A stretch of DNA of 64,000 nt, from the IMG/VR virus record IMGVR_UViG_3300028833_000141, positions 1 through 64,000 of that record; one strand, 5' to 3'. Of this stretch, positions 4,010 to 47,100 are shown one piece after another (the stretch's first letter is position 1; the number at the start of each line of letters is the position of its first letter). A program made the translations under genes and the position numbers. This DNA is from a virus (taxonomy: Duplodnaviria; Caudoviricetes). The notes below the pieces were generated by a model. That model was not told where the DNA came from and did no database searches. It saw nothing but the letters and a program-made list of their open reading frames with translations.

Positions 4010-5359
4010 ATGGATGTAAATATTTCTAATTTGTCAGATATTCAATCTGAAAGCGGAGTGATCGGTACACTAATATATCATCCTGATTATATTGCACATA
4101 CTGAATATCTGAAACCAAATCATTTTTACAATAAAGAAAATGCATGTATTTATTGGAGTATACAAGAATTATTCAAAGAAGGAATACAGAATATTGATGC
4201 TTACAATATATCAAACAAGTTACAAAGTCATAAAGGTGTGCAAAACACGCTTGATAAATACAATATTCCGTCAATACAAGAGTTTATAGAATTGTATAAA
4301 GAAACTGCAAGACACTCTATAGAGGAATATAAAATGCTTGCAGAGAATATCGTCACATTTGCTTTCAAAAGAGATTTGATAAAAGTATTGAATCAAGTTG
4401 AAGCAAAATGTTATAAGCCGGAATTTAATCTTGAAAAAATGAGCAACATGGTATATTCGGAACTCGATAAACTGACACAGAATTTTCTTGTAGCAAGTGA
4501 TATTGATACTCTTGGCGAAAATATAGACAGCATTTGGGAAGAAATCGAAGGCAGAAGAACGGCAGACGGTATATATGGAATCCCATCAAAGTTTCCTACA
4601 TTTATGGATTATTTTACATATGAGCCTGGGGAATTAGTAGTTATTCAAGCGAAATATAAACAAGGTAAATCTGTTCTGATTATGAATGAAGTAGTTCATA
4701 AGTTAAAAAATGGTATTGCTTGTTTAGTAGTCGATAGGGAAATGCCAACGAGATTATATGTTGAAAGACTTATATCTCATTTGACAGGAATCGAAATAAG
4801 CAAAATTAAAACAGGCAGATACGGTGAGCAAGAAGAACAGAAAATAAAAGAAACTATTGCTTGGATTAAGAAACAGCCATTTGTTCATATATATGATCCG
4901 AATATGACAATGGAAAGATTATATTCGATCTGCAAATCATTACAAAACAAAATGAATTTAGGCTTTGTTGCTTATGACTATTTGAAGAGTAATGAAACAT
5001 CCGCAAGCGACAACTACAATCTGCTCGGTGCTAAATGCGATTTTCTTAAAAACAATATAGCAGGTGAGTTAGACATTCCTGTTCTTGCTGCATGTCAGCT
5101 TAACAGAGAAGGGAAAGTCGCAGACAGTTTTAAGATCAATATGTTCCTTTCAGTAGGAATTAAATGGGGAATGAAAACCCTTGAAATGCAAGCAAAAGAT
5201 GGAATGGATTGTGGTAATGCTTATGCTAAGATTTATGTAAATCGTCTTGGCAGACAGATGGATGAAGATGATGAGGATTCGTACATTGATTTTTATTTCG
5301 ATGGAGATACTATGTCAATTGTAGAAGCAAGGCAACATGAGAGGGATGAATCATATTAG
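4010..5359 (+). CDS. dnaB: DnaB-like replicative helicase
   Basis: DnaB-type N-terminus, Walker A AKYKQGKS, Walker B AYDYL, ACQLNR. Confidence 0.85.
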   Translation: MDVNISNLSDIQSESGVIGTLIYHPDYIAHTEYLKPNHFYNKENACIYWSIQELFKEGIQNIDAYNISNKLQSHKGVQNTLDKYNIPSIQEFIELYKETARHSIEEYKMLAENIVTFAFKRDLIKVLNQVEAKCYKPEFNLEKMSNMVYSELDKLTQNFLVASDIDTLGENIDSIWEEIEGRRTADGIYGIPSKFPTFMDYFTYEPGELVVIQAKYKQGKSVLIMNEVVHKLKNGIACLVVDREMPTRLYVERLISHLTGIEISKIKTGRYGEQEEQKIKETIAWIKKQPFVHIYDPNMTMERLYSICKSLQNKMNLGFVAYDYLKSNETSASDNYNLLGAKCDFLKNNIAGELDIPVLAACQLNREGKVADSFKINMFLSVGIKWGMKTLEMQAKDGMDCGNAYAKIYVNRLGRQMDEDDEDSYIDFYFDGDTMSIVEARQHERDESY

Positions 5360-23602: not shown

Positions 23603-26600
23603 TTAGATTGAGAAGCCGACCACGACACCATAGGCGTAGTTCGCGGCGCCGTAGTAGCCGTACGGATAGCCGTAAAAGAGGACATACATAAAGTAAGCAG
23701 AGTAGGAGGCATACGGTGAACGCTCCCACCAAAAGCTCGCACGAACCCAAAGACCACCATCATTAGCAGCAATTAAGTTGCCATCATTCAATCTCCAGAA
23801 TCCCATACGAGTATGTTTAGCTTTTGTTTCTGCGCTAACATAAATATACCCTATACTTGAATTACCAGTATTAATCCAAATATCACCTTCTTTAACAGAA
23901 CTACCTGTATATGCGGTAGGATCGGTATTCCCCGTATAGTATTCAGCATCTTCTGGAATAATAAACCCTGGAATCTTAACCCTTGATTTATCAGATGTGA
24001 AGAACGAAATAGCAGTACCTTCATCCGAATATGGCTGACTTGTCCAACCGCCAAGCTCTCTGTTCGCAGGAAGATATAACCTATCCTCAGAAGTAACAAT
24101 CTCAGAAGATTGATTACCTGCTGATGCGTTAATCTTAACTGTTTTAATGATCGATTGCAGCCAATACGGAAGTCCATTCCAAACAAAGGTATTGAGGAAT
24201 GTTCTCATTTCTGATTCATCCCAACCGCCAACATTTGTTGCAGTAGGATTCATTCTATGAAGCAAAGCTAAAGGATTATTTGCTATCCACGAACTGTTGG
24301 TTTTTGTACTGGTTTGTCCGGCTAATCTATAACGATCAGCACCAGCAAATTCCATACGCTGTTTCTGATGTGGGAAAGACGCAAGTTTGCGTGCGATTGT
24401 GTCTCCCAAATCATCGAACCAAACTTTGCACCAATGTATCCAGCCTTTGCCATAATAATCATGACCGCCATCACTGAATCTAACAGCACCTAATGCGAGT
24501 TTCATACTTCCGCTCGTATCTCTTGTTCTGATAAGCTCCGTAACAGTTATTGCATCATTATATGTATCAGCATTTAAGTTGAATGTATAAACAAAGAGAT
24601 GTGATGAACCTTTGGCATGTCTTAATACAACAATACCTCTCGTATCTGCATTTCCAACATTTACTGAGCGATCTCCCCATTGTATAGTAGGGTTGCTGCT
24701 ATATCTAAGTCTGAATCCCTCATTACCGCTCTCATCGAAACAAGAGACTAATGTTGCACCACTCTCATTTGTGTTCAAGAATTCAAAATCGATAGCCATA
24801 GTAAATGATGGCGAATCTTCATCAAATAAAGTAAAGTTGGTATCAAGATATTGAGTACCATCAAAATATCTATCTGTGACAATAGTGTTTTCCTGAACAT
24901 TATTAAATGTGAAATCAGACCCCATTGTAAATTCAAAGAAGTCTTTATCTTCAAAATAGCTACTTGCCATACCGGACTGGCATACTCCATACAGTTCTGC
25001 TGGACTCATATCACTTGCTTCTGTGCCAGCGATAGGACGTTCTTTTCTATCCCATACAGCGTATACATCAGTATCGCCTGTGATAAATCCTGTGCTCTTA
25101 TCCCACTGTAAGAATACATTATAGATATATGAACTCTCTTCATCCGTTCTTGTAGGAATATCGCCTGAGTAATCAACGCATTCACCATATTCTGCGGTCT
25201 GTGTTTCCAATGGCAGACCTGCTCTTGAATACCATGTTACCGTGTACTCTCTGACTGTTGTGCTATAGACCGCCTTAATAGATGTGGCTGCAAGAATCGC
25301 AGAATCTAAAGTATCCCATCCAGAGAAAGTATAATCATATTGTGCATCACTTTCATGTACAGGTGTAGAAATCCATCCTTCTGTAACCGGATTAGGTGGA
25401 TATGAACCTCTATCCACATACCATGTGAATAAAATAGTAGTTTCATCATCATTATAATAGGTTACAAGATACTGAGTAACAAGATTTCGTGGGTCATAAG
25501 TTACATCGAGATCAGCCCAATAATGAGTATAATTAAGAAGTTCCTGATTCCTTATCGCACCGCTGATATAAACATCACCACTCAGCAAAGAACTATTCAT
25601 AGCGATACATTTATTAAGTAAAACTGTATCTGGCAATGTCCAATCTATGCCGAGAATACGGATTGTTTGAAGTGTGTTTACTGCTGTCTGTAAGATCGAT
25701 AAGGCATCAATATTTGAATATTCGCATATAAAAGTTTCCAGATTTGCGTAGCTTGCTACTACTAAATCTGTAAGATAATTAATATTTCTAAAAGAAAGAG
25801 TTGAAATAGTTTCAGGCAAATGCGCTTTCTGCAATTTACCATTTGTTGCGAAAGATACGGCAGATATAGAAGTTCCTTCCGCATAGAAATTGAGTAAGTT
25901 AGCACAAGCTGTAAGGTTAACTGATCCCGTAAGGTTAGGGCAGTTTCTTACATCGAGCGTTTCAAGAAGAGTATTATTACCCATATTCAATGTAGTAAGG
26001 AATGAGTTTTCGTATCCTTCCGTAGTATTACCAATAACCAAAGTTCTTAATTTAGAAGCCTTTGAAAAATCATTATCATGTATATAACAAGCAGATAAAT
26101 CGTTAAGTGCTTGTATCCTGGATGCACAGTAAATAAGAATTGCCGTATCATCCATTTCTGTGAGAGTTGTTGTTATTTCGTATTCCTGTCCGGCTTTCGC
26201 TCTAATTTGTTGTGGGTTAGAAGAGTTTCCGTAACGGACAGTTAAATACATATCGGAATAAGGAACAATTCTAAGAGTATAATCAGGCTCAACAACTACA
26301 CCGGATTGTGGAGTATTACATCTGAACATAATCTGATCAGCGGTAATGTTTGTTCCGATATATTTTGTTCCAATATAAGCCTCTTGATCTCTCTCGAATT
26401 GCCTTCTTTGGTATTTCTTTCTACCATTCATCATTTCATTGAGGAATCTGATAGTGCCACCTTGATATGTTCTGAGATATTTTCTCTCAATATCAAGCCG
26501 CCATAATTCCTCTGGGAATTGTGATTGCCATGCATCAAATTCATTGATAAGAGAAGTTGCGCTCCAACAATTCAAACTTTCTCTACTTCTGTACATGGCT

Positions 26601-29600
26601 TCAAGTTGACTTCCCATGAGGTTACGGATTCTGCGCCAAAATACATTTTCAGCAGCATTATAGATAAAGCCGGAAGATGGATTTCCTTCTTGCTTATAAT
26701 CTATATCTTCATGTCCGTAAGTCATTGTAAGCTCACCTGAGTTATTACATTCTGTTACTTTTATGACCTATTAAAAAAATAGGCGAGAGAGGTTCTTCCA
26801 AAAGTGTCTTTACACTTGACCTCTCTTCTCGTGTTTCATTATTAAAAGGATTATTTCACGAGTTCAGACTATTGCATCATCCTAAGATGTTCCTTCGCTT
26901 AGTCGTTGTTCCTCCATATATAAGCAATAAAAAACTCATGCTTTGCACGAGATTAAAGATGAATATATGGTTGGAAGGCGTTGTCCGTCCTTTCGGAGTT
27001 TCGCCGTATATCAGAAGGAATTTTTTATACTTGGCACAAATAATCTATGCCAAGTGCCGTGTCAAAGTCATAACCCCATAAGTCGAAACGATAACCGTTA
27101 TTTATCGCTGCTTTGGCATTATTGATAGTATAATTACGAGCATCAGAACCCATTTCGGTAGCTTCGGCTTCTGTGATATAAGTTTTACCGTAGTGCCAGA
27201 ATGTATTCTTAGCTCTGTTATCAATCATTGTGTATCTTTCAGTAAACAGATACCAATAAAGCGGTGATTCAGATATAAACCAATCATCAATTTCTGATAC
27301 AAATTCAGCGTCAGTCGAAGTGATAACCCATTCATACATATCGCGCCATACCTGTTTTGACGCTTCTTGCTGTGCTTCGATCTCCGCACTTGAAATTGTC
27401 TCACCGTCTTTTGTTCCCATATCATATCTAAACTCAAACGAATCATCCCATGCTTCATATAGAGATTGGCGTTTCAGATTGTTCTCATTATTCCATTGTT
27501 CAGAAGTAATAGGGTAAACCATAGAAACACCCTCGTTAGGGTCATAAGTGATTTCATCATTTTCGTCAAGATAAACACCAGTCTGAAACCAACTGTTAGG
27601 AAGTGTATTATCTGATACCTCGACAACAAATTCTGCTAAATCTGTCGGATCATTTACACGAGTGTTATCAGTTTTCTTTGAATCTCCAATATTTCCAATT
27701 CCATAGAAATGCCAGCCTGTATCGGCAAATTCTCTATGAGTAGAAACATCAGGATCACTTTCTTTAATAAAGATAACGCAGTTGCAAAATTCCATTGAGT
27801 TTTTAACAAATGGATTTCGCTTCTGTCCTGGCGTTTTATAAGGAATATAATCATTAAATCTCTTTTGGAGAAGGGCATTATTCGCATTCTCAGAACTTGC
27901 GATATTCACCTTGATATTAAACCAATCATTAGGTACGGATGTACGAGTCAATGCGACTTTACCGCTACCATCTGAATATTGTGTCCCATCGCCAAGCGTA
28001 AGTTCTGTAATATATGTTGAGTCAAGCGGAATCTTACTTACGACTTGATGTTCGCCATCAAAGCCGAAGATAATATCAATATTTCTTCCTGCATAACCGT
28101 ATTCATTTGATGTAGTTCCTTCAATTTGTTATCCTATAAGCTTTTTATCTTATAGTTCTAATAGTTACAATTCCTATTAGTTCAGCATATCTTTTCACCC
28201 TCGTTATAGCGTTAGGTTTGCAGTTCGCTAATCTGCTCAAATCACCCTATATGTGATTGTGCTGCGGACTCGTGGGAAGATTATATTCTGCTATGCAGTT
28301 TCACTTCCTATGCGTTGCGTGTGACTATATTGTTACACATAGCCTTCCACTCTGATTTGCATTTCAGCATCCCAGATTTCTTCCGCAGTAAATATATCTA
28401 TATTTCTATAGATAGTGGGTAAGTTTTTCGCCCAGCATGATAACCATTGACGAATCTCCAATTATCTAAAATAGGATCACCATTTTTATGAATACACTCA
28501 ACATTCGTATATTTAACATAGTCCTTTTTATCGTTAGTAAAATGAGGACAATCGATTTTTATAACTTTCAAATCCGGACAAGCATTAGCAACCGATTCCG
28601 GTGTTAATGTATTATTCTCGTCATAGATTTGATTTCTCTCATATCTTGCAATCATTGTTTCTGCGTCTGGCGCATCAGCAATAAAGTTCTTCAAGATATT
28701 TGAATCGGTCAAAGACGAAGAGTATGCTTTCATTCTATAAATGTATACATCACAATCATCTGAGCCGATAGTGATAGGAACAGGCTGATACTGATAAAGT
28801 CTGTGTGCATCACTATAAAGCATTGGACGAGCAGCAACACCATCCTCGTAACTCATAATATATGATGTCGCATCTTCATTTTCCGTATCAAGCGGATTGA
28901 TATTAAACTCATATTCAATAATATCCTCTTCGCTGTAAGGAGTATAAAGATTATCAGTTGACGAGTACAGATACGCTTCGTGAGCGTTCATCTTTAATCC
29001 AACCTTTACATTATCCTCAGTAGGATAACAAGACAGGAATGTGGTCTGATTATCCCTGACATTCATTGTCTTGAATCTAACCTTAAATTCCGCACCGGAT
29101 TGTTTAGGATCATTAGCAAATAAGTTATAGCTAATATACGCCCTTGTTCCAGCCTTTACGCAGAAATATTGATTTCCGTCAGAATCAAGATTGTAACCAC
29201 CGTTATTCCAATCGAAGTTTTCAGATACAGACATTTTGACATTAGCATTATTAGCATCTTGCCAAAGCCTGTTTGCGCTACTATTAGACATTCCAACAGG
29301 GTTAAAATCAAATTCGAGATTTGCTGTGACAGGGGATATATCGTATCCAAGTTCTGCAACATCAACCTTGATGGTTACTGATGTAGCACCGCAAGTAATT
29401 GTCAATTCATGTAAAGCAATTTCTTCTGACTTGAACGCCCATGTATTAGCGTATGAAGATAATCTCAGAGTATTAACAATTTCACCGTCTACTGATAATG
29501 TAACAGATGGGGTAGTAGTTCTTGGATCAAAAACAACATAAGGAATTGTAACGGTATTATACTGTTTCGCTTCAACTTCACCATAATGATCGTATCTGTA

Positions 29601-31853
29601 AATACAGCCGATAATTGGTACTGTAGATTCCGAATCGTACCACATAATATCCTTGAAGATATGTTCTGTTTCAATTTCTACATTATTGATTTCCGCTGTC
29701 ATCCAACATTCAAGTAAATGTGCTCCATGTGCTTGTGATGGGAGAGAATATGACTGTAATACGCCGGATGCAGAGGTTGTTACAGATGTTAATTCAACGC
29801 CATCAAGCTTGAAATGAACAGTTTTTTGAATCGCTCCATAAGGTGTATATGTAAAGTTAACCGCTGAACCTACAGGATAAGTATTCCTATCGCTGAAATT
29901 TGATTCAAGTCTTACATCCGTTACTTGAACAGTCCAACTCTTTACATTGATAGAGCCGCCTTCGTCTGTGACAGTCAGCGTAAACTTCTGACTTCCAATA
30001 GAACAATAATCAGTAATATCAAAGGTATTTCTGCCTTGTACAAGGTTTCCGCTCATAACCGTTGTTGAGCCACGTTTAATTGTATATGTACCATCTACAT
30101 ATTCATTGTCTGAATCTGTCGATGAATAATCAATAACAATCAGAACAGGATCAGTGGTAGTACAAATAATAGGGGATGGGGTGATCTTATCTACAACAAG
30201 ATTTGTAGTAGAACTTGAACCGCCACCGCCACCACTCGGAAGTGTGAACTGACTTTTTACTGTTTCTGTCGAACCATCGACTTCATATAATGTATATACA
30301 TAAGTCTGATTATTTTCAGTCGTTAATGTCGCATAGTATGAAAGTCCTTCAACATCAATAGAATTGATTTGTTGTGCAAGCCTTTCAAGTGTTCTGCTCA
30401 GTCCTGTAATATTCTGCGTATTAACACTTACTTGGTCATTAAGTGCGCTTGTCATTACATCGATTTCACTCTTTGTGTAAGCATCTGAACCGATAGGACG
30501 GAAAGCATTATTAATCCATCTATAATGCTGATATAATCCTGCTGAGTTCAGAACATAATAATCAGTATATTCGTTTCCGCTTTCAGGAAGGGCAGATAAT
30601 ACTTCTGCTACTGAACCACCAACGATTTCCCAATATCCTGAGATATATTTATAGTAAATATAAGTTCCGTTATTTGCGAGAATGTAATCTGTATCTTCAT
30701 CACCGACTTCTGGCAATTCAGTTACTACTAATGTTGTTGCGCTACCGAATGTATCCCATCTTGATACATTATTTTCATCTGTAATCCACCAATATTTATC
30801 AAAACTGCCTGATGAATTTGGTATTAAATAGAATGTACGATTTTCTCCGACCGCTGGCAGTTCATTAACAATTGTGATTGAAAATGCGTCATAGTCAGCT
30901 AATGCAGCCTGAGTGTAGTTTCTCGCAAGCATCAGTATGCCTTGAAGCGCATCATGCAGATTATTATAGGTGAGCGTATCGCTTACTTGATAGGCTGCTC
31001 TGACAATACTTGCCAAATTATCAACGTCAAGTTGTACTGCGTCAGCCTTTGCTTTTGCATAATCGAATATATCTACTCGTCTGTTCTGAGGGTCATAGAC
31101 AGACGGTTGCATAGCATTATCTGCTTTTACAAGCGTTGATTCAAAATCGGTATCGACTTTTGATCTTGATAAAGTACCGTCTGCAATACTCAGCGCAGCC
31201 ATAGAACCAGAAGAAATGAGTTCAGCAAGTTCAGCCTGTACAGCATCATCAATAGCATTTGCGATAACATCACTGTTTTCAAGTGCGTCAAGCTGTTGTG
31301 CCATTCTATCGACTTGTGCCTGAGAAGCCTTTAATGATAATGCACTATTTATACTGTTGATGCTTGTTCCAATATCATCTATATCCGACTGATCCGCTTT
31401 TGTATTAATCTGTCTTTGTAATTCTCTGTCGGCTGCAACTAACTCAGCAGAGTTTTGTTCATTCCATGTAGTAAGATTATTTACTCTTGTTACAAGCTGT
31501 GTATATAATGATTGTGAAATATCTGTACTTTGAGCATCAGACACAAGAATATTAGGATCAATATTCAGAGTTAAATAATTTGTAGTAGCAATTACATCTT
31601 CATCACTACCATATAACATAACGGTGCAAGTTCCAGGTTGTATTTCCGATGGTAAATAAGCTCCGTTATCCTCATCGAGATAAACATTATAAAATACTCC
31701 CTCTTGACCAAACTGAGCGAATGTAGTAAGACTATCCCATTCGCTTGGTAAATTAAATACCAGCTTTATAAAATTTTGTGTACCTTCAATAAGTGTTTTA
31801 AGGTTTGTCGTAACTTTTAATTTTTGATTAACGACAGCTATTAAAATTTCCAT
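23603..31853 (-). CDS. giant tail fibre / receptor-binding protein, DGR target, spliced: join(31853..28430, 28121..27047, 26747..23603), 2547 aa
   Basis: BppU-like N-terminus, acidic ELPxxG repeats, CotH-kinase-like region, LRRs, B-repeats, ConA-like domain, C-lectin-like VR domain; splicing restores HAGQGTTS and DTALGINNSG in frame. Confidence 0.88.
23612..23750 (-). repeat. DGR variable repeat (VR) at the 3' end of the tail fibre gene
   Basis: Encodes [46 protein letters not shown]; matches TR except at TR adenines (one G>T, one extra codon). Confidence 0.96.
26748..27046 (-). ncRNA. group I intron B (299 nt, no ORF)
   Basis: 5' exon ends in U; P1 ACTTGGCAT/GTGCCAAGT; P3 TTCCTTC/GAAGGAA; P7 ACGACTA/TAGTCT; ends AACAGAATG. 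Confidence 0.92.
28122..28429 (-). ncRNA. group I intron A (308 nt, no ORF)
   Basis: P3 CTGCGGA/TCCGCAG; P7 ACGCATA/TATGCT; ends in G; removal restores the frame (C|AA = Gln). Confidence 0.87.
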
Positions 31854-41100: not shown

Positions 41101-44100
41101 CATAAATGCTTTCTCTGAGTTCATCAACAGCATCTTTAGCATCTTGCGCTTTGTCATAAAATTCCTGGTAATCCTTTATGACTTCCTGCATCTTTTTGCC
41201 GTAAGACGAAATATTCAGTTTACCATTTGCAACACCTTTACGGATATTCTTTGCAGCTTTTTTGCTGATTAGTTTTCTCTTAACAGCTTGATTCAACACA
41301 GAATTGGCTTTACTTTGATAACGATTAGACGCTATGCTTTCATTTCCGATTTGCGTAAGAGAAGCGGTAATAGCAGACGAATATTGACTTGCAGCTTTGT
41401 CGTAATTGCCACGCTCAATATTTAAGTCCGCACGCTTTGTGAATCTTTCTATCTTTTTGGTCTGGCGTTCGAGGCGTATTTCGATCCAATCAAATAATTT
41501 CTCAAACCAATTTTGGAATTTCTCTAAAGCCTTTCCACCGCCTTTTGCGTAAGCAGTTCCTTCTGCGAGGGCAGAACCATTAGCCATAGTTCTTCCACGA
41601 CCAAGAGCATATCCATTATTTAATAATGAACGAGATTGGAGGTGATTAAATACAATCGCATCTTTTGGCAAATCAACGAATTCTGCGCCTTTTTCGCCAA
41701 CAGTATGCCAAGTTGCATTGTGAGGGTCTACTACGATTTCCTCCATTTATATTTTCGCTGATTCGCTACATCAGCGAGATTGTAAAACAATCCTCATACT
41801 TTCGCATGAGATTAGACTATATCTTTATGTGATATATAATTCACATATTTACCATTTCGGATTACCAATCGCTTGCAATCCTACTCCCTAAAAGGGATAG
41901 TCGTTGAACCTTTTCCTATTCGGAACTTGGCTGCTGATTATCCAATTCATACAGTTTTCAAACTTTCACGATTAGTCATTTTTCATACTTGCGTTGTAGT
42001 CTGTATGACTCTAAGGATGTTCCAGCAATTAGATAAATTTGCTCTATACATTACTGTATAGAGGGGCATACGAAATACCCAATTCGCCCACTAAAGTACG
42101 ACCACCTGCGCCAACGCCCCAATAGCCTCCGGCATATGATGTGCCGTAAGCGTGGGCAGAACCATTTGCTCGATTTCCACCGCCTGATGGTGGGGAATTA
42201 GTTGATACATTCGTCCAATATATGTATCTATATTGATTTGAAACAGATAGAGTGTTGGTATAATTATCTTTCCAGTTTACTATTCCGTTAGCAGTTTGGT
42301 CTGGCATTTTATCATAATTATCTTTCCAGTTTACTGTTCCGTTAGCATTTTGATCTGGAAGTGGATCAACATTCATATCTAATGCAACTGCAAAATCGTT
42401 GTTCTGCAACGCTGATTTAATACTATCAACAGAAGAGGTATCTACTTCTGCATCAATTTCCAATTCCGCAGATTGATCTTGGATTTTCCCTTGAAGTTCT
42501 GCTAATTTAGCATCTGATTCAGATGTATCTGCTCCAACTGAAACTTCTATATCTCTTTGGTTTGAAACTTGATTAAATTCATTTAATAAACTAACAAGTT
42601 CTTTTTGCCCCTTAGATAAGCCTTTTGTGTCTACTTTCAGTATCGCAGGTTTATCAAGTTCTTGTAATTCCGATTCACAATAAGCAATTATTTTATTTGC
42701 GTTTTCAATATCAGAAGTATCAACATCAGGACGAAGCTTCAAATCGTTCATTTGATTGATATTTCTTTCAAGAACTTTTCTATAATCATCGCCTTCGGCT
42801 GTAATAGTTAGGGCAGAACCTATACCAACTTCATCTTTAAATTTACTTAGTTTTTCTAAAGATTTAACAGCATCCTCTGCACCATCTTTCAAATCGCCAT
42901 GAGCGATAGTGTCACCAACATCACTTAATGAGTATTCAAAATCTGAAAGAGATAATCCTGCTTCGGCAAGCTGAGTCTGTAAATCAGACAGTTTTTCTTC
43001 GCCAATGCTTTCGGTAAATTTCTCCATAGAGAAAGATGCTTGATCTGCTTTCGGAACATATTCACTTATGATGTCCGATAAGGCTTGTTGCTTTTGAGCC
43101 GCAACTTCGGTAGCTGTTCCAGAATATAAAACTGCCTCATTGTATTTACGAACAGTATCAACACATCCCTCGTAAACATTTCCGTTAGCATCAAAGAGGG
43201 AGGCGTAATTCTCTTGCATTGTCGCAGCATCTTCCGACATTTTCTGCGTAAGTTCTTGTGATTCTTGTTGGATGCGTTCTAATTCTGCTTTATCATCTTG
43301 ATAAGCCTGTTGTCTTGCATTCCTTGCAAATGGAGAAACATCTGCCATATCTTCCGGAGTATAGCGTTGCATCTTTGTGCTGAGTGCTTCTTCTTGCCTA
43401 TTAAGAGAATTAAGCTGATTTTGTCTTGCACTATACCGATCTATTAAAGATAATGAACCAAATGAATCAGGTTTACTAAGAACCTCATTAGCCGCTGTTG
43501 CTGCACTACGACCTTGAATCTCGGCAAGCCTCTCTTGCAGTTTGATTTGGTTTTCAAGAAGTCTATTTTGCCGTTCAAGATTATTTAATTCTTGTTGTTC
43601 ATTTATAGATAACTTATCTTTATTCTGTAATTCTTTTCTGCGAATATTATTTTCCGAAAGCTCTTTATTTAAAGATTCTAAACTCGATTGAGTTTCATTA
43701 TATGATTTTCTTGAATCTTCGGCTTTCTTTTGCATTTCACCAAAAGAGGTAGTGCAAAGATCAATAAGTGCAATTGTTCCGGCAATTCCGGCAGAAACGC
43801 CAATAAATGATCCTAAAGCTGTAGTAGATAATCCTAAATATTTTGCTAAAGAAGCAAAGGATTTTTCAACACCGCCTAATTTAGCAATCTTTAATATGCC
43901 AGCGATTCCTGCTCCTGTTCCTACAGTTCCAAATAAACCAATCTCTCCTGTGATAGAATCAATAATTCCAAGAATTTGTGTAAGTCCATCAACGACTACA
44001 CCCATATCTTCCCTTGTGAAAAGATTCTGAGCAATGCCTACTCCGGTTTCTCTAAGTGCATTAAGTTTAAATGTGAGGGATTCCGATACGGTTTCCATCT

Positions 44101-47100
44101 CTGCCATAGCTGAACCGGCACTTTCAGACATGGATTTAAGTGATGATTCTACGGCATCAAAATTGTCAAGAATCGCGGAAACGATTTGACCTTGCCGCTT
44201 TCCTGCTAATTTTTCTAATAGTCGAGCTTGTTGTTTGTCAGTAAGATCATCGTATATTTTAGAAATATCTCTAAGTAAATCTACGGTAGATTTATACTCA
44301 GTTTTATTTTTATCAGTAAATAAGGATATGCCTTCCGGATGATCAGCAGTTTTTGTAAGATCGGCTATATCTCCGGAGAGTTGTTCTACACCGCCAATGT
44401 ATTGTTCGGTCTCTTCATCATATCCTCTGATACGCATTGATAATGTTTTCAAAGCTGTCAATCTGTTACTTTCCCATATTCTAATGGTACTGACCATCAT
44501 TTGATGGCGGTTAGTCATTTCTGGCTAACTCCGCAATTTCATGATTAGGTTATAGTTGCGGTTCGGACTGTATCTTCTATGAATGGCTGAACCAACTACA
44601 TTACTGTATTTGGTATTACAGTCTCTACGGATTCTGTATTATTGTATTCATTTTTTATATAGAAGGATTACAATAATACAGTCTTTCCTCGGTCTATGCC
44701 GCCTCCGGCTTTTGACCGATATAGCCATTTTTATTGTCGGCAAGCTGTTTACCGACACTTGCAGCATCCCTTGTGACTTCTGTAGCTGCTGTTCCCAGAG
44801 CTATTGTTTCATCAAGAGTGTTGTTTGCGGCAGCCATAGCTGACGATGATCTGGTTAAAAACTCTACAATGTCTTGATTTGATACTGCTTGTGTGTTCAA
44901 AAAAATCTGTTACTTTCACCTTTAATTGAGGCTACTGACCATATTCTTATATGGCGGTAAGGACGTTAATCCTTACTCTCACGTTTCTTTTTTAATGAGT
45001 TATAGCGTGAGTTCAGACTATATATTCATCCCAAAGAGGGAGGATAACTTCACAATACTTGTTACCAAGTACCGCCTGTAGTCGTTACGGATTCTAAAAA
45101 TTTATCTAATTCTTCCTCTATTTGTTCTGTGTTTTGAGTATAATTTAATCTTAATAATGGAATTTTATTATCATTACAATAATTGTTTTTAATATTATCT
45201 CTTATTACCATTAATTTATAACTCTCTTCTCCACCAAACCATTTAATAGGTTCAAAGTGTTGTTTTCCATCATATTCAATTAAACCAATCACTTGTTCAT
45301 TTTCATCAATTATTGCAAAATCAAATTTCAATTTATATGTGTATCTACAATCAGCAAATGTATATTGTGGAATATGCCTAATATTATGACTATTCATGTA
45401 ATGTTTTATTATTTTCTCTCCTTTTGATGTGATCTTGCAACCACAAGAAGTAGTGGAATTATCATTTATATTAGCTGGCAATGCAACAAATTCTTCATGG
45501 CATATCGGACATTCAAACCACCATAACCATGTTCCATTTTCATTCTTTTTATATGGTGTAATTGCTTTAACCCCACAATCAGAAACAAAACCAGTCCAAT
45601 CTTTTGTACTTGTCTCAGTTATTCTTTCTTTATTATAACAACCGCAAGAAGTCGTATGTCCTGTTTGAACATCATTTTTATTATAAATACCAATTGTTCC
45701 GCAGTCACAACGACATTTAACCTTTGGTCTCTTTTCATTCCATAGCGTTTCTAAAACAAGTAGTCTCCCAAATCTTTGACCGTCAATTTCTTTGCCAAAT
45801 GTTCTTCTCATTACTTCCTTTTTCATACATCCACACGAAGTTAATTCTGTGCTTGCTTTTCTTAATGGATATGCTTGCCTTATCACTTCATTACCACAAT
45901 CACATTCACATAAACAAAAAGTCTTTTTATTTTTATAATTTGGCAACATTTCTTTGACAACTAAATGTCCATATCTATTGCCAACCATATTTATAACACT
46001 AATAAAAAATCACCTCCTTACAAGGGGTGATTAGATAAATTTTTAGTCTTTCCTCGGTCTATGCTGCTCCCAGCGTTTGACCGATATAGTTATCTGCTAA
46101 AATCCATTTCGGATTTCCATACGTTACCGTATGTTTCGGCAACACTTTACCGATTTTGTTAATTTTACTTGCGACTCCATCAAGCGCATCGCTGGCTTCG
46201 ATTTTATAAGCCTTCATTACGGAGATTAATCCGTCATTAGCTTGCTCGATCGTCATGCCAGGAGATATCGATTTGAATACACTCGATACTTCTGACATTG
46301 TTTTGGAATCTTCCAGATTATATCCAAGACGCGACCAATCCGCTGCACCTTGAATAATATCTTTAGTAGTAGTACCAAATTTCTTAGCACTATCATTTGC
46401 TGTAAAATAAAAATCGTTCAACTGCTTTCCTGTAGCTGAACTTGTTTTCTTTAAATCAACGAGAGCATCATCGAGTGCCACAACTTCATTGATTCCTGAT
46501 TTTATCGTTCTTATAGAACCATATATAATTGTCGAAGCACCAACATAATTTGATAGTTTACTGAATGCACTTTTCATTCTTGAACCGAAAGTTACAACAT
46601 TCTTTCCGGCAGCTTTCGATTCTTGACTGATAGTGTTAAATCTTTCGTTAATCCTTTTTAAGTCAGACGAATTGACCTTGCCGCTTTCGCTTAAAGTATT
46701 CAATTCATTTACTAATCTTCTAACTTCTGCACCATATTCTTTAGCAGCCTTAGTGCCGGAGTTTAAGAATTGATTCATCTTGTTTTGAGATGAAGCGATT
46801 TGTGATGCACTCGCAAACTGTTTCATTTCAGCAGAAACACTCGATATTTGATTCTTAGTAGTTGTTAAAAGTGCATCATACTCTCTATACTGATTTACAA
46901 GTTTACGAGAACCATCAATACCATTCGATTCAGTTGTACGCATAGCCGTTGCCATTTGTTGCAACTGATTGATATTAGATTGAATAGTAGTATTTAATGT
47001 ATTGCCAGAATTTGCAATCTTATCATAGTTCGCCTTAACTGATTGTAAATCAGAGTTTAATTTTCCAGTATTGACCGATTTTAATGCTTTGTTGTAATCA

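Follow-up and report, generated by a model that had tools for sequence, protein, structure and literature searches.

A phage group I intron with a C·A pair at the predicted 5' splice site of a tail-fibre gene

Group I introns that carry a C-G pair in place of the near-universal 5' splice-site pair, U·G, are a rare exception. In the mitochondrial cox1 introns of Aspergillus nidulans and Podospora anserina, the pair is reportedly C·G, and the title of the 1995 paper by Hur and Waring (Nucleic Acids Res 23:4466) raises selection at the protein level as the cause. The last base of the 5' exon has been described as 'virtually always a U (or exceptionally a C)' (Tourasse et al. 2014, PMC4227781), and 72 natural introns with C(-1):G, designated Leu.3Cg, are present in proteobacterial tRNA-Leu genes (Williams 2020, bioRxiv 10.1101/2020.01.27.920355). 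The C·A combination has been engineered in the laboratory. According to PMC11417360, which cites Doudna et al. 1989 and Baum et al. 2005, the Tetrahymena ribozyme splices accurately in two steps when c-A is placed at its first-step site, and in a Pneumocystis ribozyme c-A ranks second in reactivity, after u-G.

Here, we describe an intron with a C·A pair at this position in a window of 64,000 nucleotides, which represents positions 1 to 64,000 of the IMG/VR virus record IMGVR_UViG_3300028833_000141 (Caudoviricetes). The record is a 76.6-kb virus contig that is roughly half-complete and contains one copy of this intron, which extends over 308 nt (28429..28122, minus strand) and has no ORF. Judged from the sequence, the fold, the junction and the pairing register establish it as a genuine group I intron.

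Host gene and exon junction

The intron interrupts a tail-fibre gene (a DGR target) of a gut phage, on the minus strand, which encodes ~2550 aa in total and is split by two introns. The first-pass annotation had placed an intron at 28122-28435; it is indeed located there, but the end at 28435 includes six exon bases of P1, and the true end is 28429. The two exons that flank it are as follows.

28430..31853, minus strand: exon 1 of the tail-fibre gene, ending in ...CAT GCT GGG C, as defined by homologue alignments
27047..28121, minus strand: exon 2 of the tail-fibre gene, starting with AA GGA ACT..., in which AAG is the P10 partner

The ORF of exon 1 (28398..31853) reads ...NGYHAG and continues through 10 intron-encoded codons to a stop codon. 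The frame of exon 2 is open from 28128, with the reading (QIE)GTTSNEYG. Exon 2 ends at the second intron (26748-27046), which is of the U·G type, and beyond this intron the gene runs colinearly into the ORF 23603..26725, a 1040-aa exon. No domain was detected by Pfam in exon 1 or exon 2, and a tblastn search with exon 2 found no match in GenBank phages.

To define the junction, we used the last 250 residues of exon 1 as the query of a homologue search and aligned 120 listed protein clusters at the break. An uninterrupted reading, HAG|QGTTSNEYG, was found in 86 of them. The remaining 34 clusters end 2-33 residues past HAG, and the first of these residues is always R, which is the outcome expected when the C is followed by an intron that starts with G. 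The downstream exons are intact in the interrupted relatives wherever the DNA was read. At the DNA level, most of the 80 IMG/VR loci are intron-less (GGN CAA/CAG GGN ACN; for example, CATGCGGGGCAAGGTAC in L021 and L028), and four contain an insert of 446-905 nt exactly at the junction. The flanks of the insert in L019 and L030 read CATGCGGGGC|G...G|AAGGTACG, and removal of the insert yields the exact intron-less allele of L028. In alignments with three uninterrupted homologues (2590-2637 aa), exon 1 aligns to residue n and exon 2 from residue n+2, leaving a single residue, Q, between them. Since one G comes directly after exon 1 and another directly before exon 2, only GGG C + AA GGA gives CAA. 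The intron-less DNA and the uninterrupted homologues thus leave one possibility, GGG C|G...G|AA GGA, which is the junction that had been singled out earlier as the only one that keeps the frame and restores the QGTTS motif. The final base of the intron is G, as had also been stated (...AACAAAUUG at 28122), and like tails are present in same-site orthologues and in relatives for which the 3' end was read. C28430, the last base of exon 1, is the first base of a Gln codon; this base cannot be U, because UAA or UAG would terminate the protein.

Conserved fold and splice-site pairing

A search with the core motif TAGTCACAYGCAACGCATAG retrieved 41 IMG/VR loci containing related introns at several insertion sites. 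From a 21-sequence family alignment, RNAalifold produced a consensus consisting of P2, P3, P4, P5, P6, P6a, P7.1 with its inner hairpin, and P8, to which P7 was added as a pseudoknot. Standard pairs occupy 93.7% of the 1060 cells of this alignment, as compared with 27-44% when the partners were slid by 1-3 columns. Changes on both sides were observed in 31 of the 51 pairs, and none of 500 shuffles reached any of the observed measures. The intron of the window folds into the same helices when it is folded alone. These helices form the group I core, in which a P3-P7 pseudoknot is combined with the P4-P6 and P3-P8 domains, and are arranged along the intron as follows.

28430..28434, minus strand: exon strand of P1, UGGGC, with the 5' splice site between 28430 and 28429
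28416..28423, minus strand: internal guide sequence CUUACCCA, with CUU (28423-28421) as the P10 part and ACCCA (28420-28416) as the P1 part
28395..28414, minus strand: P2 hairpin (UAUCUAUA GAAA UAUAGAUA), 8/8 pairs covarying
28383..28388, minus strand: 5' strand of P3, CUGCGG, 7/7 pairs covarying
28352..28375, minus strand: P4-P5 with the J4/5 internal loop, from the family alignment and RNAalifold
28319..28350, minus strand: P6-P6a, from the family alignment and RNAalifold
28309..28315, minus strand: 5' strand of P7, ACGCAUA, containing the bulged C as well as the G that would form the guanosine-binding G-C pair
28275..28308, minus strand: P7.1 (GGAAG/CUUCC) around the hairpin CUGC-AUA-GCAG, 4/5 and 2/3 pairs covarying
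28262..28267, minus strand: 3' strand of P3, CCGCAG, from the family alignment and RNAalifold
28194..28261, minus strand: P8, in which several tens of bases are inserted that the orthologues lack, from the alignment and the single-sequence fold
28184..28189, minus strand: 3' strand of P7, UAUGCU, which crosses P3 and thereby forms the pseudoknot
28134..28180, minus strand: two 3' hairpins, P9 and a P9.x; in orthologues, the first loop holds an ORF that looks like an HNH homing endonuclease
28122..28133, minus strand: 3' tail GAUAACAAAUUG with the terminal G at 28122; orthologues have the same kind of tail

The P7 helix (A-[C]-GCAUA/UAUGC-U) had been recognized in the first-pass annotation as a covariant form, and the comparison agrees with this: the G-C pair after the bulged base is kept and two pairs are swapped relative to the common GACUA/UAGUC. 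P7 is invariant in 21 of the 21 sequences, partly because the search motif includes it. The G-C pair, which together with the bulged C on its 5' side is in the canonical position, would constitute the guanosine-binding site, and we take it to be the equivalent of G264-C311 in Tetrahymena. Extra helices of the P7.1/P7.2 type, which define subgroup IA, are present between P7 and the 3' strand of P3 and show strong covariation (GGAAG/CUUCC enclosing CUGC/GCAG). P8 (28194-28261, minus strand) contains two extra small hairpins. In the single-sequence fold, the guide UACCCA can be paired with GAGGGUG, the 3' strand of P8, which is a possible competitor.

The sequence directly past the 5' splice site is GAAAAA-CUU-ACCCA. 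As had been proposed, exon UGGGC pairs with guide ACCCA to form P1, consisting of U28434-A28416, three G-C pairs, and C28430 opposite A28420. The proposed P10 geometry was likewise recovered: guide CUU (28423-28421), which adjoins the P1 part, pairs with AAG of the 3' exon (28121-28119). One internal guide sequence therefore provides the adjacent P1 (UGGGC/ACCCA) and P10 (AAG/CUU) pairings that characterize group I introns. The C28430-A28420 combination departs from the near-universal U·G pair, and the orthologues have C-G at this position. G1·U9 and A2-U8 could lengthen P1 past the cut site, in which case the C·A would be inside a helix. Alternative P1 registers and a U·G pair at another position were rejected, as G is absent from the guide region and none of the exon U bases yields an in-frame junction with a terminal G.

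The other four introns of the window use U·G, as had been noted earlier: CUUGGCAU|..GUGCCAAG, GGGU|..GCCC, GUCGGU|..GCCGAC and UCGGU|..GCCGA. The first of these is the second intron of the same fibre gene (26748-27046, minus strand), in which the 5' splice site follows CUUGGCAU and the guide is GUGCCAAG, giving a canonical U·G pair; it has no Rfam match. An upstream large gene (41744-46148, minus strand) contains three further introns, each located after a GGU codon and with U·G in P1.

In the Tetrahymena ribozyme, J4/5 contacts the wobble pair. J4/5 (28370-28371, minus strand) reads GA/AA in the window, whereas every same-site orthologue with C-G has AA/AA. As GA is also found in some relatives that use U·G (L113), it is uninformative on C·A.

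Orthologous introns and the C·A lineage

Same-site orthologues, representing at least eight distinct sequences, were found in L015, L019, L030/32, L089, L100, L114 and L278, with the arrangement GGGGC|GAAC...CUU-GCCCC. Their P1 register and P10 are as in the window, but the C forms a Watson-Crick pair with G, and this base is G in all eight among the matches listed. The Watson-Crick C(-1):G pair is thus present in L015, L019, L030, L089, L100, L114 and L278, whereas the partner in the window is A. When a looser pattern that allowed other guide bases at the junction site was used, the matches were mostly due to chance, and the real orthologues (at least eight) all had G. The CUU/AAG P10 is kept in all copies. 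Two guide positions in the window differ from those of the orthologues, namely the partner of -5 (C-to-A) and the partner of -1 (G-to-A). At position -5, the G-C pair of the orthologues is replaced by U-A in the window through a synonymous exon change, GCG-to-GCU, and the C-to-A change in the guide; this compensatory change confirms the P1 register.

Family members at other sites for which P1 was readable (GGGGU|...GCCCC, UGGGU|...GCCC, GGGGGU|...GCCCUC, CUGGU|...GCCG etc.) all use U·G. A 3' end of ...AACA(N)AAUUG, or a near variant, is shared by the same-site orthologues and by those relatives for which this end was read. Because all other family members found have G, A28420 represents a derived G-to-A change in the lineage of the window. 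A tree of the family, constructed by FastTree on ~190 core columns, lacked the resolution to place the same-site introns either in one clade or in several. A search with the C·A pattern GGGCGAAAA-N0-2-CTTACCCAC yielded no further copy; all of the matches (5 in IMG/VR and 84 in JGI metagenomes) are unrelated coding sequences without the intron core. The survey of homologous introns that the first-pass annotation had called for therefore presents C·A as the derived state of one lineage but not as the general solution of the family, as the same-codon orthologues have C-G.

The ORF in the P9 loop of the orthologues (L030 ~4010-4560, L032, L015 and L089; MEEIWKPI...GYEVSNLGRVKS...) looks like an HNH-type homing endonuclease. 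In L019 only a remnant of it is left, and in L015 its frame is broken by a stop codon; the intron of the window lacks it. In relatives, a second intron of the same family is located ~1.1 kb downstream in the gene (L085:6840-7057, and, on the minus strand, L100:10417-10631 and L108:9698-9912). It follows ...AAAGGU in NVK|V and uses U·G; the site corresponds to approximately 27890-27900, which is intron-free in the window, and L100 has both copies. In blastn searches, the core resembled a stretch inside the span of the gyrase A CDS of Bacillus phage AR9, which is annotated as a three-piece join, and also matched gaps that carry no annotation in the genomes of phiR1-37, c-st, phiCD211 and crAss-like phages. 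For the 3' module (28122-28199), consisting of the second 3' hairpin and the GAUAACAAAUUG tail, the contig depth summed over gut metagenome runs is very high, and the module has further matches in gaps of crAss-like phages and of C. difficile phages (phiCD211). These matches in diverse phages indicate that the module is common to many different phage introns.

Rfam model RF00028 did not match 28122-28429 at the gathering threshold (50 bits), nor at E<=10 in a 3-kb search. The sole group I intron that Rfam found in the window is that at 41793-42086, which is also the only one of the three introns in the upstream gene to pass the threshold. RF00028 also misses the family copies in L092, L097, L019, L083, L105, L111 and L211 (AR9), although other group I introns in those same loci, unrelated to this family, score 85-93 bits with it. 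Since every tested member of the subfamily is missed, the absence of a match reflects a blind spot of the model and is no argument against the intron. RF00028 is blind to the whole intron subfamily with P7 GCAUA/UAUGC.

The C·A pair recurs in other assemblies. A 9912-nt Logan contig from the probable source run has no differences to the window. Three other studies, of gut and viral metagenomes, provide short overlapping contigs that together cover 27905-28592 and have the same C, U(-5) and ACCCA. Among the runs listed as containing the stretch, none was an RNA run. No T or G, which the first-pass annotation had named as a finding that would speak against the pair, was seen: the Logan contigs show no difference at 28430, 28434 or 28416-28420. 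The contigs of the three studies lack one A of the P1 loop (28424) and differ at 20 exon positions, and the listed differences account for all of their mismatches. All 20 exon differences are at third codon positions, and 19 of them are synonymous. Twelve are located in exon 2; these are all synonymous, come as close as 14 nt to the 3' splice site, and are all upstream of the first in-frame start codon of exon 2, TTG at 27951. This pattern indicates that, within the C·A lineage, purifying selection acts on both exons in the joined frame, which is hard to explain unless the intron is removed.

Interpretation and comparison with known systems

These results make it likely that the element is a splicing-competent group I intron from a phage subfamily that has P7.1 helices and a covariant P7, and that its cut site is marked by C·A where the ancestral pair was C-G. 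The intron interrupts a conserved Gln codon behind the first base, which is locked as C. As UAA and UAG are stop codons, the canonical U·G is impossible at this site. An ancestral intron recognizing GGGGU with the guide GCCCC would have settled at GGGGC, giving a Watson-Crick C-G pair. A change of the guide base from G to A in the lineage of the window would then have produced C·A, which probably takes the form of an A+·C wobble that is protonated and isosteric with G·U; G-C pairs adjoin it on one side and possibly G1·U9 and A2-U8 on the other. After the first step, CUU would pair with the AAG of the 3' exon (P10), and the terminal G would be used in exon ligation to give ...HAG-Q-GTTS.... We infer from these data that the intron splices, and likewise the wobble geometry of the pair and any advantage that it would have over C-G. 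A·C is isosteric with G·U only when protonated and may be a plain mismatch at neutral pH. In addition, C-G is viable in the orthologues, so that the G-to-A change need not be adaptive. The more specific proposal that this was compensatory ribozyme evolution, in which an intron behind a codon-locked C changed its guide from G to A and thereby recreated a wobble as A+·C, is tentative, and we regard it as slightly less likely than not.

The sequence data are compatible both with C·A as a catalytic wobble and with C·A as a tolerated mismatch. In the latter case, the intron splices, the terminal mismatch has arisen by neutral drift, and the cut is set by the four P1 pairs, by tertiary contacts or by a protein cofactor. 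The C-G orthologues, which work (34 of the 120 listed clusters are interrupted at the site), suggest that the family is independent of the wobble, and only one lineage with A was found. However, C·A can have flanking pairs on both sides, as U·G has in a canonical P1; of the three possible changes of the guide G, the observed one gives the known isosteric substitute; and the pair is constant in four samples while the adjoining P1 loop varies. We therefore regard a tolerated mismatch as unlikely, while giving it more weight than any of the other alternatives.

Loss of splicing is much less probable. If the intron copy were dead, the fibre gene would be split or a pseudogene, and exon 1 would be made alone with an intron-encoded 10-residue tail. 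The loss of the homing-endonuclease ORF and the non-canonical splice pair would fit such a state, but every core helix is intact, the gene is colinear through the second intron into the 1040-aa exon, and the 12 differences in exon 2 are all synonymous third-position changes upstream of TTG 27951. Slightly less probable still is another junction, such as GGG|GAA, which keeps the frame and would give HAG-E-GTTS (ligated sequence GGGCAAGGA) with an intron ending in U. Such an intron would lack the terminal G, unlike every family member, and would replace the Q that is invariant in all uninterrupted homologues seen; moreover, the orthologues, ligated at C|G...G|A, equal the intron-less alleles exactly. 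An assembly or sequencing error in the C or the A has a negligible probability, because the same bases are present in the contig of the probable source run (9912 nt, 0 differences) and in contigs of three other studies.

The locus provides a natural series of pairs for one intron backbone, which has U·G where it is inserted elsewhere, C-G in the many phages that carry it at the present site, and C·A in a single lineage; the exon base is fixed by protein coding. Whether wobble geometry or base identity marks the cut site is thus testable on natural sequences. If the G-to-A change did recreate a wobble, no earlier natural example of C·A at the splice site of a group I intron was found by us, and the case would match the Tetrahymena mutagenesis of 1989 as cited in PMC11417360. 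Two practical gaps are also apparent. Covariance-model annotation with RF00028 overlooks an entire phage intron subfamily, and such introns cause large phage tail-fibre genes to be mis-called as two or three ORFs.

No natural C·A combination at the 5' splice site of a group I intron was found in the literature searched. The orthologous C-G introns are more members of the rare known exception. Among phage introns, the gyrase A intron region of Bacillus phage AR9/PBS1 (KU878088) is similar to the intron of the window (~74% by blastn over ~95 nt of the P6-P7.1 core), and RF00028 misses both; the host gene is, however, a different one. The fungal cox1 introns share a C as the last exon base in place of U, which in the window starts a Gln codon. 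They differ in being organellar and in having G as the partner, as do the orthologues of the window intron, whereas the window has A. Group B IStrons, such as BcISt1 (PMC4227781), are also natural elements of the group I type whose 5' exon has a last base other than U, and they are experimentally confirmed; in these, G is the last exon base and a U-G pair persists with a shift of one base, whereas no U-G is available in the window. The Leu.3Cg introns resemble the window intron in having a natural C(-1) and in that their splicing is predicted only, but they have a Watson-Crick C(-1):G pair, reside in tRNA anticodon loops, and belong to another intron lineage. The same combination of exon C and guide A at the first-step site is found in the mutants of the Tetrahymena and Pneumocystis ribozymes, as described in PMC11417360. 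Those pairs are laboratory mutants of IC1-type ribozymes, whereas the pair described here is natural, is found in a phage, and is kept in several samples.
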